64,000 nt of DNA from a virus (lineage: Duplodnaviria; Caudoviricetes), in IMG/VR virus record IMGVR_UViG_3300047160_005605, positions 8,229 to 72,228 of that record, one strand, 5' to 3'. Made by a program: the position numbers and the translations under genes. The notes beneath the pieces are model-generated. The model saw nothing but the letters and a program-made list of their open reading frames with translations, had not been told where the DNA came from and ran no database searches. Positions 3,662 to 63,219 of this stretch are shown piece after piece (the first letter of the stretch is position 1; each line of letters starts with the position of its first letter).

Positions 3662-4115
3662 TAAGCTCTTGCACTTCACGGTGCACAAGTTTATCCGTAA
3701 GTATGGCGGGGATTATGATACGCTGAGAGCCGATGCCAACTGGCATTTTCTCTCAGCGTATCTATCCTTCAAGCCATCGAAGTCAAAGTTTTCCACTTGG
3801 GTGAGCTATAGAGTCCACATGGGACTGTTGGCGAGCAAGCGCGACGATAAGAAGCGCGCCCACTATCTCAAGCCGCTACCAACTAAGCTGTACGCTCGCA
3901 CGGAGAGCACTGCAAGGCAGCTTGCGCGGGACTTGTCAGATGATGCCGGCGCGATCATACGCTTGGTGTTGAATATTATCCCTGCCAGCTTCTTTCGACG
4001 GCGGCATAACAAGCGCCAAGCGCTAGTTGAATACCTAACTGGCTTGGGTTGGTCTGAGGCTAAGATCGAGCGTAGCTTCGCCGAGCTAAGAGAGGAGCTA
4101 TGTACTCAAACCTAA
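3621..4115 (+). CDS. compact ECF-like sigma factor
   Basis: Region-2-like SFKPSKSKFSTWVSYRV; region-4-like LGWSEAKIERSFAEL; AAGGAG RBS before GTG. Confidence 0.65.
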   Translation: MLRNAITETYGEVDKLLHFTVHKFIRKYGGDYDTLRADANWHFLSAYLSFKPSKSKFSTWVSYRVHMGLLASKRDDKKRAHYLKPLPTKLYARTESTARQLARDLSDDAGAIIRLVLNIIPASFFRRRHNKRQALVEYLTGLGWSEAKIERSFAELREELCTQT

Positions 4116-5539
4116 TGCGCAGAGCGAGAGGTCTTGGCAATGGTGTCATGCAGTTGGTGAGGTGGACCGATCCTATCACCAACAAGACTATTACCAAGCC
4201 GCATGAGTTTCAAGCATGGGCAGTCCGCAAGCTGCACAGGTGGGGCGGGCGGGGATTGCTTGCCGATGACATGGGTTTGGGCAAGACGGTCGAAGCGCTT
4301 ATCTATGCCCATGAGGTTCCAAAAGCAAGACCCGCTCTAGTTATTTGCCCTGCCTTTCTCAAGTTCAATTGGGAGCGCGAAGCAGCACGCCATGTAGGTA
4401 TGCGAGCGGAGATACTCGACGGGACGAGAGTGCCGAGGAGAGGGATACTCCCCCCAGCACCTTTGTCTATTATCAACTACGAAATACTAGGACCATGGAT
4501 GGAATGGCTGATGGCGATGAAATTCAAGCTTATCATCCTAGACGAGTGCCAGTACGTCAAGAGCCGCAAAGCTAAGAGGACTAGGTATTGCCGACAGCTT
4601 TGCTGGAATGCGCCAAGGGTAATCGCTCTGAGTGGTACGCCGCTCACCAACCGACCCGAAGAGTTGTGGTCGATCCTGAATATGATACGGCCAGACCTCT
4701 ACTCAGAGTTTATGCCGTTCGCGTTCAAATACTGCAAGCCGCAGCATTCGCCGCATGGATGGTTGTTTCCGGGCGCTGACAACCTTGACCACTTGCATCA
4801 CAAGCTGAAAAAGCAGCTTATGATACGCCGGAAGAAAAGCGCCGTCATGCCTTTCTTGCCGAAGAAAGTGCACTCGGTCATACCTGTCAAGATCACCAAC
4901 CTCAAAGAGTATGTCCATGCCAAAGAGGACTTCTTGGGTTGGCTGTACTCTGTGAGTCCCGAGCGTGCACGTACGGCAGCTAGAGCCGAAGGGCTAGCGC
5001 GCTTGGGATACTTGCTCAGGCTCATTGGAGAAGGCAAGCGTCAAGCTGTCTCCAAGTGGATTGAGGACTTCTTAGGCGCAACCGACGATAAGCTCTTAGT
5101 CTTTGGTCGGCATGTTAGCGTAGTCACTGGCCTCCACAATGATTTTCCCAAAGAATCTGTGGTCATCTATGGCGCTGTCTCTAAGAGTGAGCGTAACAAG
5201 CGCGAGCATGAGTTCCAGAACAACCCCAAGATAAGAGTCCTCATAGGCAACATACAAGCTGCTGGCGTAGGTCTAAACCTCACAGCCGCAAGCTATGTAG
5301 GCTTCGCTGAGTATCCCTGGACTCCGGCCGAGCTTAACCAAGCGATAGACAGAACGCACCGAATAGGCCAGACCAAGCAAGTTAGCGTTTACTATCTTAC
5401 TGCCATCAACACCATAGAAGAAAGGATGGTGAAGCTGCTACAAAAGAAGCAAGGGATCTTGAGTTCCATTCTCGACGGGAGAAGGGATCGTTCCGATGTT
5501 AGTGTGTATGACCAACTCATAAAGGAGATGCGAAAGTGA
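4100..5539 (+). CDS. SNF2-family (HARP/SMARCAL1-like) helicase
   Basis: LADDMGLGKT, IILDECQ, LSGTP, AAGVGLNLT and QAIDRTHRIGQ motifs. Confidence 0.93.
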   Translation: MYSNLMRRARGLGNGVMQLVRWTDPITNKTITKPHEFQAWAVRKLHRWGGRGLLADDMGLGKTVEALIYAHEVPKARPALVICPAFLKFNWEREAARHVGMRAEILDGTRVPRRGILPPAPLSIINYEILGPWMEWLMAMKFKLIILDECQYVKSRKAKRTRYCRQLCWNAPRVIALSGTPLTNRPEELWSILNMIRPDLYSEFMPFAFKYCKPQHSPHGWLFPGADNLDHLHHKLKKQLMIRRKKSAVMPFLPKKVHSVIPVKITNLKEYVHAKEDFLGWLYSVSPERARTAARAEGLARLGYLLRLIGEGKRQAVSKWIEDFLGATDDKLLVFGRHVSVVTGLHNDFPKESVVIYGAVSKSERNKREHEFQNNPKIRVLIGNIQAAGVGLNLTAASYVGFAEYPWTPAELNQAIDRTHRIGQTKQVSVYYLTAINTIEERMVKLLQKKQGILSSILDGRRDRSDVSVYDQLIKEMRK

Positions 5540-5757: not shown

Positions 5758-5998
5758 GGAATTCCGGAAGGTAGTCGATGGCAGCTTCCTCGAGACCACA
5801 AGAGCCGAGCGCTGCGCCATCGTCGAGCACCGAAAGGTGTGCAGGACTTGCGATGAATATCTCACTAATATTAGTCTGGAAAGCATCAAGGGATTGAAGG
5901 AGAGGCTTCCTTCGCCCCTCTATGAGTTGGCGGTGCTAGCCCTATGGGGCGCTGCCAGTACGATCCGCAAGCAAGACGTGGAGGACCCCGAGACATGA
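5747..5998 (+). CDS. zinc-binding anti-sigma (ZAS/zf-HC2)-like protein
   Basis: MTCKEF start and H-x3-C-x2-C motif (HRKVCRTC). Confidence 0.6.
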   Translation: MTCKEFRKVVDGSFLETTRAERCAIVEHRKVCRTCDEYLTNISLESIKGLKERLPSPLYELAVLALWGAASTIRKQDVEDPET

Positions 5999-6870
5999 CC
6001 TTTGCAGAGATTCTCGACCATTATGGTGTGCACTACGAAACCGAGGGCAAGCACACCCGGCGAGGCTGGGTACAACTCGATTGCCCTTGGTGCAGCGGCG
6101 AGCTTTACTTGGGTTACAACATCGCCGGCAATTATTGCAATTGCTGGCGCTGTGGTAGCCACAGCACGCTGGACGTGCTAGTATCAGTGACCCGAGCGAA
6201 CTACCCCGCAGTGATCGGGCTTTACAAGCAATTAGACAGAGCAGACTATGAGAAGCCTCACACCGTAGTCTGCGGCAAGCTGCTAGTGCCTCAAGCTTCA
6301 TTCCTGGAGAAAGCGCATGTCAAGTATCTCCATGAAGTGCGCGGCTTTCGGCATAGCGAGATTAACGAATTGGTTAAGTTATGGAAGATCAGAGGCATTG
6401 GTCCCTTCGCTCCGAAGCTGACTTGGCGCATTTTAATCCCCATAGAGTATAGGAGCGAAGTGGTCAGCTGGACCACGCGCAGCATCGGCGAGTTTACGAG
6501 CGTGCGCTATGTGTCGGCGTCTCCTTCCGAAGAGAGGATGCACCACAAGCACTTGCTCTATGGTGAGGACTATGCCAGAGCGTCTATCATCGTCTGCGAA
6601 GGCCCTATAGACGTGTGGAAGATCGGGCCCGGCGCTGTTGCTACGCTTGGCGTAGGCTATACGGGGGAGCAGCTTTTGCGCATGAGCCGCTACCCTCACC
6701 GTGCGATCTGGTTCGACAATGAGCCTGACGCTCGCCAGCGCGCTCGACGGCTTAGAGATGATTTAACTGCATTCCCTGGGACAACCTATGTCATCATGAG
6801 CGATGCGAAGGATGCGGGATCCGCCAAACGCTCAGAGATAGCAGAGGTCAGAAGGAGATTCTTGTTATGA
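5995..6870 (+). CDS. DNA primase (zinc finger + TOPRIM)
   Basis: CPWC...CWRC zinc domain; IVCEGPIDVWK, AVATLG and WFDNEPD TOPRIM motifs. Confidence 0.9.
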   Translation: MTFAEILDHYGVHYETEGKHTRRGWVQLDCPWCSGELYLGYNIAGNYCNCWRCGSHSTLDVLVSVTRANYPAVIGLYKQLDRADYEKPHTVVCGKLLVPQASFLEKAHVKYLHEVRGFRHSEINELVKLWKIRGIGPFAPKLTWRILIPIEYRSEVVSWTTRSIGEFTSVRYVSASPSEERMHHKHLLYGEDYARASIIVCEGPIDVWKIGPGAVATLGVGYTGEQLLRMSRYPHRAIWFDNEPDARQRARRLRDDLTAFPGTTYVIMSDAKDAGSAKRSEIAEVRRRFLL

Positions 6871-7154
6871 CAGAAACGGCGTGGCGATGGCATATTATGG
6901 ACCTAGAGATTGGCAGTGAAGAGACTTTTCGCTGCCAAGGGTGGGAGTTGCGAGTGAAGCGAGTTCGCCAGGAGCTACATACGCTTTGGTTGAGCCGGCC
7001 TAATATCCTCCGAACACGGTATTTCACGCATCGCGCAAACCTCCTGAATTTCGGTAGAAAAATGTTTTTCAAAGAATTTGTAGCGTTGAACCAAAGTTCG
7101 CGCAATAATAAAGTGAGAGACAAAGCACGGCAATATTGGGAGATACCAACATGA
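6867..7154 (+). CDS. hypothetical protein
   Basis: ATGA overlap with the primase stop. Confidence 0.6.
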   Translation: MTETAWRWHIMDLEIGSEETFRCQGWELRVKRVRQELHTLWLSRPNILRTRYFTHRANLLNFGRKMFFKEFVALNQSSRNNKVRDKARQYWEIPT

Positions 7155-7156
7155 AT

Positions 7157-7746
7157 GCAGGCAAGCTGCTCAGCAGACGGACGAGCTGGCGAGCCTGCGC
7201 CTCCCAATTTGGGGTAGGATGTATAGGAGAGCCGAACGGGATTCGGTTGCCGCAGGCGGCAGACAACTCTCTGAAGGAGGTCCGAAGATCGTCCCTGCTG
7301 ACTCATGTTCCCGGCATGTGCATTTCGACTGCACTGCGTGGCGGTGACCTCACCGCTGACAATGGGGCTGGGGGATACGAAGTATCCCCGAGCACTGGGC
7401 ATTCTGAGCTGGGTCGCCAAGCCCATTGTACCGGCCGCACTCCGGGCAAGCACCACAACGTCCGTGATGGGGTGAACCAGATACCAACGCAACTGGAGGG
7501 TCATACAAGCGGCTCCTCCGAGCGTGCGCTAGCTCCGCTATCTGGGTGCCGCAAGCACTTATGCGGGGGGCCTGGACTTCTCGTCACAAGGGCAGGGACT
7601 ATCACTCTAAAGGTTGCCATTCGACACATCAACACTGCCTTGTCACCACGATGTACTACTACCCTATGGATGGTCCTGGGTAGCAAGTACATCTACCGTG
7701 CTCGATGAGTATTGCTAGCGCAATACCCATCTCACAGTAAGTGGTG
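7157..7746 (+). ncRNA. candidate large structured non-coding RNA, class not recognised
   Basis: Many nested stems, e.g. 7359-7366/7422-7429, GGGGATAC-GAA-GTATCCCC (7371-7389), 7650-7657/7686-7693, 7704-7715/7720-7731, 7644-7649/7741-7746; the overlapping ORF is not protein-like; strand inferred from context only. Confidence 0.5.
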
Positions 7747-7815
7747 GTTAAGGAGAAGCCGGAGGCTGCAGGAAGTTCCTAGATGATCCTTTTGTCTCAT
7801 TTTCGGGAGGAAACC

Positions 7816-7863
7816 ATGGGCAAGGCAGAACAAACTCTCCAGGCATGGAGGCATCTTATATGA
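7816..7863 (+). CDS. 15-aa leader ORF (MGKAEQTLQAWRHLI)
   Basis: Strong GGGAGG RBS 5 nt before ATG; its TGA overlaps ATG 7860 (ATGA). Confidence 0.45.
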   Translation: MGKAEQTLQAWRHLI

Positions 7864-8375
7864 CCCCGTTTATGCCGTGGCAGGAACTGCGTCAGGACAA
7901 GTCCAAGCGTAAGCTTGATCCGCAGGTCAAGGATGTGCTCGATAGCGTCTTGCAGCTTGACTGGCCCGCGGGCAGCGACCAGCAAGTGTTGCCTGTGCTC
8001 ACTAAGAGCTTGCGAGCGTACAAGAGCTTTCGGGAGCAATTCGCAGCGATGGACAAGCGCTTGCGCGAGCGAGCGCTGGCACTCCGGGCAGAAGCGAAGC
8101 AAGCAGATTTGCCAGAACGCAAGACCAAAGAGTTGCACTTGCTCTATCGGCACATACGCCTGATCGAGCACCTCCGCAACTACTTTGCACCAAGCCATAT
8201 GTTTATGAAAATCTGGATGACGCACGTACAGAGAGAAGCCAAGTACAGGGGAAATAACTTACGCAAGCTTGCCTTCTCTACAAAGTCGCCACTTTTCACA
8301 AAGCTAGGGCGACAATGGACTTACGAGTATTGCCATCAGTCTTATTGGTTTGACCAACTTCTCGAAGAACTTTAG
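7860..8375 (+). CDS. hypothetical protein (replication module, between primase and helicase)
   Basis: ORF coupled to the leader ORF; no motif recognised. Confidence 0.7.
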   Translation: MTPFMPWQELRQDKSKRKLDPQVKDVLDSVLQLDWPAGSDQQVLPVLTKSLRAYKSFREQFAAMDKRLRERALALRAEAKQADLPERKTKELHLLYRHIRLIEHLRNYFAPSHMFMKIWMTHVQREAKYRGNNLRKLAFSTKSPLFTKLGRQWTYEYCHQSYWFDQLLEEL

Positions 8376-8383
8376 GAGGGGCT

Positions 8384-8659
8384 ATGACCTGTAATGAGTT
8401 TCAGATTACCTTTGGGCAGGTTCATCCCCTGCAAGCAACATCCCCAATGATCCTTGCGATGGCCATTCACATGAAGGAATGCCCATCGTGCAAGAAATGG
8501 ATGCGTCAGGGAGAGGATCCAGACGAAAAACAGCATCCACTTATGACGTTTGCCTTGCAGAGAAAGGCCCGCATGGCATTGAACGATTGCCAGACTGATC
8601 CCGAATTGCGCCAGCAGATGGAGGCATACGATGCGCTCAAGCGTAAGGAACGAAAGTAA
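8384..8659 (+). CDS. second ZAS/zf-HC2-like protein
   Basis: AGGAGG RBS; MTCNEF start; HMKECPSC motif. Confidence 0.6.
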   Translation: MTCNEFQITFGQVHPLQATSPMILAMAIHMKECPSCKKWMRQGEDPDEKQHPLMTFALQRKARMALNDCQTDPELRQQMEAYDALKRKERK

Positions 8660-10028
8660 GACGGAGAGGCGAGTCCTCACCGGCATGATTACGGATAAAG
8701 ATGTCCTTGCGCGCATCGCTCCGAAGTGGGACAAGGACCTCTTTCGGTCGAAGTTCTCGAACATCGTCGGTGGCTGGTGCGTATCTTACTTCAACAAATA
8801 TGGCAAAGCGCCCGAGAGACACATAGAAGGGTTGTTTGAGACTTGGGCGACAGCGAGCAAGGACAAAGCCACAGTCGAGACCATAGATGAGTTTTTAAGT
8901 GGTTTGTCCGATGAGTATGCGAGTCTCCGCAAAGCCAAGAACAGCGAGTATGTCCTAGACCTAGCTTCTACACACTTCAACGAAGTGAAGGCGTCTAGGC
9001 ACGCCGAGCAAGTGCAGGGCTTTGTAGACAGTGGCAACCTTGACCAAGCGAAGAAAGCCATCAATACCTATAGCGATATCCAAATCGCATCGGGAGATGG
9101 CATAGACGTTCTCACGGACCATGCCGCTATCCAAAAGGCGTTTGAGGACAAGAAGGAGCCGCTAATCTCCTATCCCGGTGCTCTTGGCAGCTTCTTCGGT
9201 GATGTATTAGAACGCGATGGACTGGTTGCCTTCATGGGTCCTGAGAAGCGAGGTAAGACGTGGATGCTCATAGACGTAGCTTGGGTGGGAATGCTGCAAC
9301 GTCGTAAGGTTGCCTTCTTTGAGGTTGGTGATATGAGCCAGAGTCAAATCCTGCGGCGCTTTATGACCAGAGCGAGCAAGCGACCACTTACCGCGAGAAG
9401 TGTACTCTATCCACGCTCGTTGACGCACGACCTAGACGAGCCATTCGCTGAGGTGGTCCAAGAAGAGAGGGAGTTCACTAAGCCGTTGCACTGGAAGACG
9501 GCCTGGAAAGCTTGCCAGAAGATCCTGAAGGTGGACCTACGGAGCAAGCATTCTTACCTCAAGCTGTTTTGCTATCCTAACTCTTCTATTAACATCTTAG
9601 GTATTAGAGATGTGCTGCACCAATTAGAAAGGCTAGACTGGACTCCTGATATAGTGGTGCTCGACTACCCGGACATACTCGCACCTTATCCGGGCTACAT
9701 GGAGAGCAGAGACCAGATCAATGCGACGTGGAAAGCCATGCGGGCTATAAGTCAATCCTACCACTGCCTCTTCGTCACGGCGACGCAGAGCGACGCAGCA
9801 TCCTATGAAGTGATGACACTACACCGAAAGCACTTCGCCGATGATAAGAGAAAGTACGCGCAAGTTACCGATATGATTGGCTTGTCGCAGACCGAAGATG
9901 AGAAGAAGCGGGGTATCTTACGTCTCAATCATCTGGCTTTGCGCGAAGGAGCCTATAGCGAGAGCCATTGCGTGCACGTCGCGGGTTGCTTGGCGATAGC
10001 GAATCCCTGCATACTTAGCACGTTCTAG
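8631..10028 (+). CDS. dnaB: DnaB-like replicative helicase
   Basis: Walker A FMGPEKRGKT, Walker B VVLDYPDIL, SF4-like FVTATQ; next to primase. Confidence 0.85.
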   Translation: MRSSVRNESKTERRVLTGMITDKDVLARIAPKWDKDLFRSKFSNIVGGWCVSYFNKYGKAPERHIEGLFETWATASKDKATVETIDEFLSGLSDEYASLRKAKNSEYVLDLASTHFNEVKASRHAEQVQGFVDSGNLDQAKKAINTYSDIQIASGDGIDVLTDHAAIQKAFEDKKEPLISYPGALGSFFGDVLERDGLVAFMGPEKRGKTWMLIDVAWVGMLQRRKVAFFEVGDMSQSQILRRFMTRASKRPLTARSVLYPRSLTHDLDEPFAEVVQEEREFTKPLHWKTAWKACQKILKVDLRSKHSYLKLFCYPNSSINILGIRDVLHQLERLDWTPDIVVLDYPDILAPYPGYMESRDQINATWKAMRAISQSYHCLFVTATQSDAASYEVMTLHRKHFADDKRKYAQVTDMIGLSQTEDEKKRGILRLNHLALREGAYSESHCVHVAGCLAIANPCILSTF

Positions 10029-16612: not shown

Positions 16613-16837
16613 TTGTTACCATCGAAAGAAAATGCCTTGCAAGCGAATGGCGCTTTGCAGAGGATCACCGATGACCACGTGTCGCGGGACTTTACCTTTG
16701 TCCGTGACTTTCTGGAGGCCGCCGAGCGCAAGCTGCCCTATGAGAAGTCCTTCGCCAAGAAGGCGGCCAAGAAGGCGGCCAAGAAGGCGGTCAAGCAGGC
16801 TGCCGAGAAGGGCTTCGGTCTGAGCGAGAAAAAGTGA
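16613..16837 (+). CDS. small basic protein with AKKA repeats
   Basis: AAGGAGG RBS; 12-bp unit GCCAAGAAGGCG x3 at 16754-16789. Confidence 0.6.
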   Translation: MLPSKENALQANGALQRITDDHVSRDFTFVRDFLEAAERKLPYEKSFAKKAAKKAAKKAVKQAAEKGFGLSEKK

Positions 16838-62663: not shown

Positions 62664-62677
62664 TCTCTATATGCCTC

Positions 62678-62716
62678 CTAACTCAACTTCCTAACTCAAC
62701 TTCCTAACTCAACTTC
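62678..62716. repeat. 13-bp tandem repeat x3 (CTAACTCAACTTC)
   Basis: Exact copies at 62678, 62691 and 62704. Confidence 0.95.
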
Positions 62717-63140: not shown

Positions 63141-63219
63141 AAAAATTTCTAGGAGGTTTAACCGGAAAAAATTTCTAGGAGGTTTAACCGGAAAAAATTT
63201 CTAGGAGGTATTAACTGGA
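63141..63219. repeat. 26-bp tandem repeat (iteron-like), two exact copies and one degenerate
   Basis: AAAAATTTCTAGGAGGTTTAACCGGA at 63141 and 63167; variant at 63193; partial copy near 63115. Confidence 0.92.

Follow-up and report, generated by a model that had tools for sequence, protein, structure and literature searches.

The DNA between the primase and replicative helicase genes of this phage (positions 7155-7815 of the window) is a real non-coding region in an unusual place. One structure in it, a Y-shaped three-way junction near its 3' end, is clearly non-random. A new densely structured RNA of 600 nt, as proposed in a preliminary description of the sequence, is not supported. The block 7045-7815, which joins this spacer to an AT-rich tract on its 5' side, is tentatively read as a replacement origin or a cis-acting replication-control region on evidence that is positional, and a functionless recombination scar is nearly as likely.

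Layout of the Locus

The window is the whole stretch of DNA analysed, 64,000 nucleotides from a 72-kb uncultured virus record (IMGVR_UViG_3300047160_005605) that is 89% complete according to CheckV. All genes around 7155-7815 lie on the + strand, and the location between primase and helicase genes, which had been read from the letters alone, is borne out by matches to phrog_47 and phrog_19. The features of the locus are as follows.

4100-5539, + strand: SNF2 helicase
5944..6870, + strand: DNA primase (Toprim), the upstream neighbour; phrog_47 DNA primase at E 2.3e-24, Toprim_2 match weak
6867..7154, + strand: o95, an orphan 95-aa ORF whose start codon shares ATGA with the stop of the primase gene
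7045..7137: AT-rich tract (GC 0.33) within the 3' part of o95 and immediately before the spacer; candidate DNA-unwinding element
7151..7708, + strand: ORF of 185 codons spanning most of the spacer, judged not to be a gene
7155..7815: GC-rich non-coding spacer of ~660 nt (GC 0.57-0.62), specific to this phage lineage
7359..7429, + strand: two-hairpin domain, including an 8-bp GGGGATAC/GTATCCCC hairpin
7460..7593, + strand: multibranch domain with weak support
7644..7746, both strands folded: Y-shaped three-way junction of two imperfect palindromes
7805-7810, + strand: Shine-Dalgarno (SD) sequence GGGAGG, read from the sequence
7816-7863, + strand: 15-codon upstream ORF, read from the sequence, whose stop codon shares ATGA with the start of o176
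7860..8375, + strand: o176 (171 aa), the C-terminal domain alone of a two-domain family; the database gene call starts at 7860
8384..8659, + strand: o91, a small Cys/His protein by its translation, the downstream neighbour
8631..10028, + strand: DnaB-like replicative helicase, phrog_19 at E 1.6e-22

In addition to the SD of the upstream ORF, o176 has a GGAGG of its own at 7847-7851. The Pfam search of o91 gave no match. A minus-strand ORF at 6848-7504 was rejected as a gene, having an antisense-like composition and no domain match in Pfam or PHROG.

Coding Potential of ORF 7151-7708

The preliminary description had called the region intergenic. Against this wording, ORF 7151-7708 fills most of the stretch; in its favour, that ORF is almost certainly non-coding and not a gene. 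As a protein query against 5.8e9 clustered proteins it found itself alone, and there were zero Pfam or PHROG matches. Its codon score was 0.002 per codon, compared with at least 0.17 in real genes, and its GC content was flat across the three codon positions (0.59/0.57/0.59). The GC content of the second position exceeded that of every ORF in the genome with 250 or more codons. Structure prediction gave a pLDDT at the floor (ESM Atlas 0.26, AF2 31; AF2 value for o95, 58), and the AF2 model had no secondary structure over residues 1-150.

ORF 7151-7708 could alternatively encode a real orphan protein whose translation is coupled to that of o95 by the ATGA overlap, so that most of the stretch would be coding, but this is very unlikely. 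The 185 open codons compare with a chance expectation for the region of roughly 0.1 (hand estimate), the first ATG falls on the o95 stop as ATGA in the same way as at the primase/o95 and upstream-ORF/o176 junctions, public gene callers predict the ORF on 15 contigs, and flat codon-position GC is also seen in some true structural genes of the same phage. Set against these points are the absence of homologue and domain matches, a codon score of about zero that lies under every real-gene window, a second-position GC (0.57) above every long ORF of the genome, and a pLDDT of 26-31 where the equally orphan o95 reaches 58.

Folding of the Spacer

All of the stems named in the preliminary description are present, in place or displaced by 1-2 nt. 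The stem 7157-62/7193-98 had a pair probability of 1.0, and the stem 7359-66/7422-29, which encloses GGGGATAC-GAA-GTATCCCC, had probabilities of 0.96-1.0. The CCGAA/TTCGG stem was located at 7232-36/7242-46 and the GGCGGTG/CACCGCT stem at 7340-46/7351-57, and the stems 7650-57/7686-93, 7704-31 and 7644-49/7741-46 were confirmed in the sequence and in the pair-probability set. The segments CCAGATA/TATCTGG and 7586-95/7635-43 are complementary, but fall outside the MFE structure and the high-probability set.

The whole spacer (7155-7814) folded with z = -3.40 relative to 60 dinucleotide shuffles. Values from -3.3 to -4.9 were obtained for 4 of 19 control windows of 660 nt from the same phage, and comparable z-scores were found in ordinary coding windows of the genome. 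Within the spacer, 200-nt windows gave z from +0.8 to -1.9, similar to the flanking genes, with the exception of 7601-7800. The spacer has the GC content of third codon positions (0.62), and from that alone stems are expected to be plentiful. What had been termed densely structured is therefore only partly so: the stems are real, but a whole-spacer score matched by 4 of 19 genome controls is not distinctive, and only the ~100-nt Y domain and, to a slight degree, two middle domains exceed the background. A single densely structured RNA of ~600 nt does not agree with this distribution.

The Y junction is the sole strongly non-random structure of the spacer and is not due to chance. For 7640-7750, z was -5.7 on the + strand (-47.4 kcal/mol) and -9.0 on the - strand (-58.8 kcal/mol), and 0 of 200 shuffles folded as well. 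The junction (103 nt) is built from palindromes at 7650-7693 and 7694-7739 closed by a 6-bp CACCAC/GTGGTG helix; on the - strand, where two A-C mismatches turn into G-U pairs, it ranks 4 genome-wide. A single-sequence covariance model of the Y domain found no second copy in 110 loci and 4 genomes.

Of the two middle domains, 7355-7433 had z -3.5 on the + strand and -2.35 on the - strand, and 7460-7595 had z -2.4 and -0.2, respectively (-58.0 vs -44.3 kcal/mol). Over the whole spacer, the + and - strands folded with -267.7 and -265.1 kcal/mol and 21 G-U pairs each, and such equal folding of both strands is as expected for DNA-level palindromes. G runs of at least 4 favoured the + strand, 5 to 1, and no G-quadruplex motif was found.

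With third codon positions at 62% GC, any non-coding stretch of this genome will look GC-rich and filled with stems, and from about ten listed stems one domain alone outlasts the comparison with genome background. Outside the window, genome positions 540-2150 contain the three most stable GC-corrected 110-nt windows, on both strands, with z from -5 to -7.

Homologue and RNA Family Searches

The RNA class of the stretch had not been recognised in the preliminary description, and the Rfam check agrees that no known family matches. Covariance models of Rfam 15 matched neither strand of 6500-8500 at E up to 1, and gave 0 matches at gathering score over all 64 kb, GOLLD, ROOL, OLE, riboswitches and ribozymes included. 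No tRNA or tmRNA was found in the stretch. GOLLD, ROOL and group I/II introns are comparable to the spacer in size class and phage location, but the spacer matches no Rfam model at permissive thresholds. Since no known family matches, an RNA encoded here, if real, would be new.

No homologue of the spacer was found by blastn (word size 7) and nhmmer against 33 related loci, by blastn against INPHARED phages, or by BLAST against three related virus records and one MAG, and two exact-pattern scans of IMG/VR found none. Searches with the primase and DnaB in IMG/VR, JGI metagenomes and GTDB genomes returned nothing above 50% identity, the primase identity of the closest phages being 42-50%, and searches of IMG/VR with o176 and its family member P0015 found none. 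The spacer is identical in 15-17 metagenome assemblies of this phage; since the flanking small genes are identical as well, this identity carries no weight either way. The stretch is non-coding and unique to this phage lineage.

Ribosome-Binding Region and the Proposed Switch

A conformational switch acting on the 15-aa leader ORF had also been proposed, and its alternative pairings proved to be at chance level. The 12-mer match between 7287-98 and 7592-7603 is present (11/12 bp), and two or more 12-mers complementary at 11/12 occurred in 10% of shuffles (p = 0.10). Pairing of the spacer with the ribosome-binding region 7795-7870 was no better than that of shuffled spacer (p = 0.44), the duplex energy being equal to the median of shuffles and of 80 unrelated target windows. 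In the MFE structure, 7302-7313 pairs with 7804-7820 and covers the SD and AUG of the upstream ORF (P 0.8-0.94). Region 7750-7870 alone was unstructured (z +0.86).

In such a switch, 7592-7603 would alternate between 7287-7298 and the loop 7669-7677, and long-range helices would mask the leader SD and AUG and thereby control o176 and DnaB. The named pairings do occur in the sequence, the MFE structure does cover the leader SD and AUG at the probabilities given above, and an ATGA overlap links the upstream ORF with o176. With 12-mer pairs of this kind in one shuffle of ten, an element-to-ribosome-site energy at the median of controls and a leader region that by itself has no structure, the switch is regarded as highly improbable.

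Hairpin modules between genes in the early region of the same phage (GATCCCCATTACC, hairpin, GACCTGGTGACCGTT, TGTGTCTCAA, AAAGGAGCTA) share with the spacer the succession of a hairpin-rich stretch, TGTCTCA (at 7793), SD and ATG, but their conserved flanks are absent at the spacer and the SD context differs. TGTCTCA at 7793 was rejected as an early-gene leader box (9 found vs 9.4 expected; conserved flanks absent). An ECF-type promoter GGAAGTT-N16-GTCTCA, with a single occurrence in the genome, was likewise unsupported. A sigma-70 consensus scan gave weak sites only, from a consensus that may not fit the promoter types of host or phage, and no promoter or terminator bracketing the stretch was identified. 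The 10-mer GGAAGTTCCT has three + strand copies compared with ~0.1 expected (genome positions 2240, 5413 and 15999, the last being window position 7771), and two of the three continue as RAACTC.

The Initiator Slot in Related Phages

The order SNF2 helicase, primase, one gene of 330-420 aa and DnaB was observed in the related loci L003, L005, L006, L021 and L035. In L006, the gene in this slot matched phrog_391 'replication initiation O-like' (E 4.5e-14) and HTH_36 (E 6e-14), and on these matches the slot gene of the relatives is a lambda-O-like initiator. It encodes a winged helix followed by the N domain of a family that also has stand-alone members of 250-270 aa (N+C), and the slot gene of L003 carries the C domain as well. 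Tandem repeats of 20-33 nt, in 2-3 copies each, were found between the winged helix and the N domain in the slot genes of four of the five relatives:

L006:6375-6446
L003:6281-6370
L021:2099-2218
L035:5421-5509

By analogy with lambda, these in-gene repeats would be an origin embedded in the initiator gene.

In the present phage, o176 matched the C-domain HMM at E 6e-34. Its 37 relatives, mostly 240-290 aa, align with it over the last ~150 residues only. The N domain was sought by HMM in all frames of the window and not found, and neither phrog_391 nor HTH_36 matched anywhere in the 72-kb record. The missing winged helix, iterons and N domain thus appear to be replaced by o95 and the spacer. 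Proteins consisting of the C domain only (150-175 aa) occur elsewhere (P0008, P0015, P0024 and P0035). The two-domain family of o176 had no Pfam match, and its profile found nothing among PDB sequences. The family (P0006-P0041) is unannotated, and its N domain is also found in O-like initiators of related phages.

The slot varies among the relatives. In L005, an 86-aa GIY-YIG nuclease ORF (L005:3460-3720; Pfam E 7e-12) lies between primase and initiator, which indicates that genes for mobile endonucleases enter the slot; in L021 and L017 the slot has an additional ORF of 212 aa, and the initiator genes of the relatives differ widely. Judged from these sequences, the slot appears to be a recombination hot spot. 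The L035 locus (QMSR01000001.1, labelled as a Thermoplasmata MAG) is a 36-kb contig with the SNF2-primase-initiator-DnaB block and queuosine-pathway-like neighbours; it probably derives from a phage and entered the archaeal MAG through binning.

For o95, no homologue of similar length was found in 5.8e9 proteins. The single-sequence AF2 model had a pLDDT of 58 (70-79 in the core) and ESM Atlas gave 0.57; the predicted fold is a helix and a four-strand beta meander followed by helices, and from these models o95 is probably a real small protein. Structure searches gave no significant match, the best being YkuJ at Z 6.1, below the noise guide, and rows for the single-strand binders PUR-alpha and Whirly were sub-threshold (Z 3.8-4.5, Foldseek E 0.5). 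A likeness seen by eye (W...FFKEF) between o95 and the N domain of the family was rejected (HMM ~1 bit, hhalign probability 0.2), and BLASTP of o95 against syntenic proteins was non-significant.

A self-splicing intron or mobile insertion could in principle have split one initiator gene into o95 and o176. The two proteins add up to 266 aa, within the 250-270 aa of the N+C family, they share a reading frame, and the slot attracts homing-type nucleases in relatives. The group I model RF00028 gave no match in the 72-kb genome at E up to 10, with controls that respond and divergent subgroups that can escape the model; with the group II model RF00029, 3 candidates were scored in the same genome and none reached E up to 10. 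GTGYG, corresponding to the group II 5' end GUGYG, does not occur at 7150-7170. With these intron models and the full Rfam scan of 6500-8500 empty and no GUGYG, with an o95 that is not homologous to the N domain (~1 bit; hhalign 0.2) although o176 is the C domain, with an SD and upstream ORF belonging to o176 itself, and with C-domain-only proteins occurring elsewhere, a split of this kind is the least probable of the explanations considered.

A Possible Origin or Replication-Control Region

Among the 80-nt windows of the 72-kb genome, the tract 7045-7137 ranks second in AT content; a GC this low is reached by 0.07% of windows. The tract codes for the low-confidence tail of o95 that AF2 leaves unfolded. 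Iterons or repeated boxes in 6871-7850 reached 2-3 weak copies at most, equal to shuffles, and the slope of the cumulative GC skew showed no change at the spacer.

As a replacement origin or cis-acting control region, the block 7045-7815 would have arisen when the winged helix, iterons and N domain of an O-like gene were lost and the C domain survived as o176, and the gap would have been filled by o95, the AT-rich tract and the GC-rich spacer ending in the Y double palindrome. The duplex would open at the AT-rich tract 7045-7137, and the GC-rich palindromic flank, together with read-through of the +-strand primase-to-DnaB operon, would aid opening or priming, on the model of lambda transcriptional activation and of the R-loop origins oriF/oriG of T4. 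The last ~60 nt would be an ordinary translation start (SD, 15-codon ORF and ATGA coupling) re-expressing the truncated o176. Both transcription across the spacer and any role of the block in replication are what we infer here.

The ssiA and ssiB sites of RSF1010, single-strand initiation hairpins beside a plasmid origin, are separate sites on opposite strands. The two adjacent ~45-nt imperfect palindromes resemble RSF1010 ssiA/ssiB and G4-type ssi sites in lying near an AT tract, on a replicon with primase and helicase genes of its own; here, however, the palindromes form one three-way junction, and the likeness is one of arrangement, known in this phage from its sequence. The origin of lambda lies in the middle of gene O and has four 19-bp iterons (PMC3985674). 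Like oriLambda, the spacer occupies the initiator slot between primase and helicase, with an N-terminal ORF on one side and the surviving C domain on the other; the relatives have iterons inside an O-like gene at this place, the AT tract adjoins the spacer, and operon transcription would cross it. Unlike oriLambda, the spacer is non-coding, GC-rich, 660 nt long and without iterons, and no winged-helix initiator was found in the record.

RNA II of ColE1 is a non-coding transcript of ~550 nt with multiple hairpins. A likeness to it and to T4 oriF/oriG lies in a design that needs neither iterons nor a sequence-specific initiator and combines an AT-rich unwinding element with transcription, and in the G runs and strand bias of the spacer. 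The differences are that, on the + strand, the AT tract lies upstream of the GC-rich part and not downstream, that no promoter was identified here, and that the spacer is known from sequence alone. The T4 origins oriF and oriG consist of a promoter and an AT-rich unwinding element and work without sequence-specific iterons (PMC3016281), a precedent in favour of the origin reading.

Weighing of the Explanations

The origin reading draws on synteny, the block occupying the slot that in relatives holds an O-like gene with iterons; on the reduction of o176 to the C domain alone, the N domain being absent from the window and phrog_391 and HTH_36 from the record; and on the second most AT-rich window adjoining the spacer. 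The non-coding nature of the spacer, folding without overall strand asymmetry and the 5-to-1 bias of G runs of at least 4 to the + strand are also consistent with it. The suggestion of a structured replication origin made in the preliminary description thus gains indirect support for its position from synteny and the AT tract, but none from the stems. Against the origin reading stand the lack of iterons or repeated boxes above chance in the spacer and o95, the unchanged GC-skew slope, the absence of an identified promoter in the sigma-70 scan, and a spacer that is GC-rich, unlike classical origins, with a GC content of 0.59-0.61, about that of third codon positions (0.62) and the value expected of drifting neutral DNA. 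In addition, a better-looking iteron array is located at the AT maximum of the genome (63141-63219) and could be the real origin, and since the record is 89% complete, an initiator could sit in the missing part. A functionless scar with an ordinary leader is only slightly less favoured than the origin reading. In this case the 5' two-thirds of the initiator gene would have been exchanged by recombination, with neutral DNA left behind, and function would be limited to the final ~60 nt (SD, upstream ORF and o176 SD). GC content and chance would account for the stems, and the Y palindrome may be a remnant or a minor signal for processing or termination. In agreement with this, structure apart from the Y domain is not above genome background, the alternative pairings are at chance level, GC equals that of the third positions of genes and is flat across codon positions, no homologue was found in any search, and the slot appears to be a recombination hot spot, with the GIY-YIG ORF of L005, the 212-aa ORF of L021 and L017 and the divergent initiators. 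However, 660 nt of useless DNA would be unusual in a tight phage operon with ATGA gene overlaps, chance does not account for the Y domain (z -5.7 and -9.0), and the adjoining AT-rich extreme is left unexplained.

A new large structured non-coding RNA of ~550-650 nt, free-standing or cis-acting, and in one version an origin transcript similar to RNA II, is unlikely. The stretch is non-coding with an overall z of -3.4, three domains on the + strand have z from -2.4 to -5.7, two of them folding 8-14 kcal/mol better on that strand, and the G-run bias favours a G-rich + transcript. These observations are countered by the lack of any homologue, an overall energy and G-U count that are equal on both strands, a strongest domain that folds better on the opposite strand, similar z in ordinary coding windows, and the absence of a promoter or terminator at the borders of the stretch. 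More doubtful still is a combined form, in which a structured G-rich transcript of ~650 nt and the AT tract would replace the lambda-type origin, with o95 and o176 acting as a split initiator; if true, it would be a solution similar to RNA II and T4 oriF with a new RNA.

If 7045-7815 is an origin, it would represent a natural swap of origin design inside a conserved SNF2-primase-DnaB module, and since the relatives keep the iteron design, origin exchange would be open to study by comparison. If it is a mere scar, the value of the case is cautionary.

Other Repeats in the Window

Further tandem repeats were observed far from the spacer. At 63141-63219, a 26-nt unit is repeated 3.0 times with 96% identity in the most AT-rich 80-nt window (GC 0.30), and ~450 nt upstream a perfect 13-nt unit is repeated 3.2 times (62676-62716). 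From their sequences, these two arrays, both close to the right end of the record, are together a candidate for an iteron origin or an operator array. At 16754-16811, the 12-nt unit GCCAAGAAGGCG is repeated 4.8 times with 86% identity, and probably encodes an Ala-Lys-Lys-Ala repeat.
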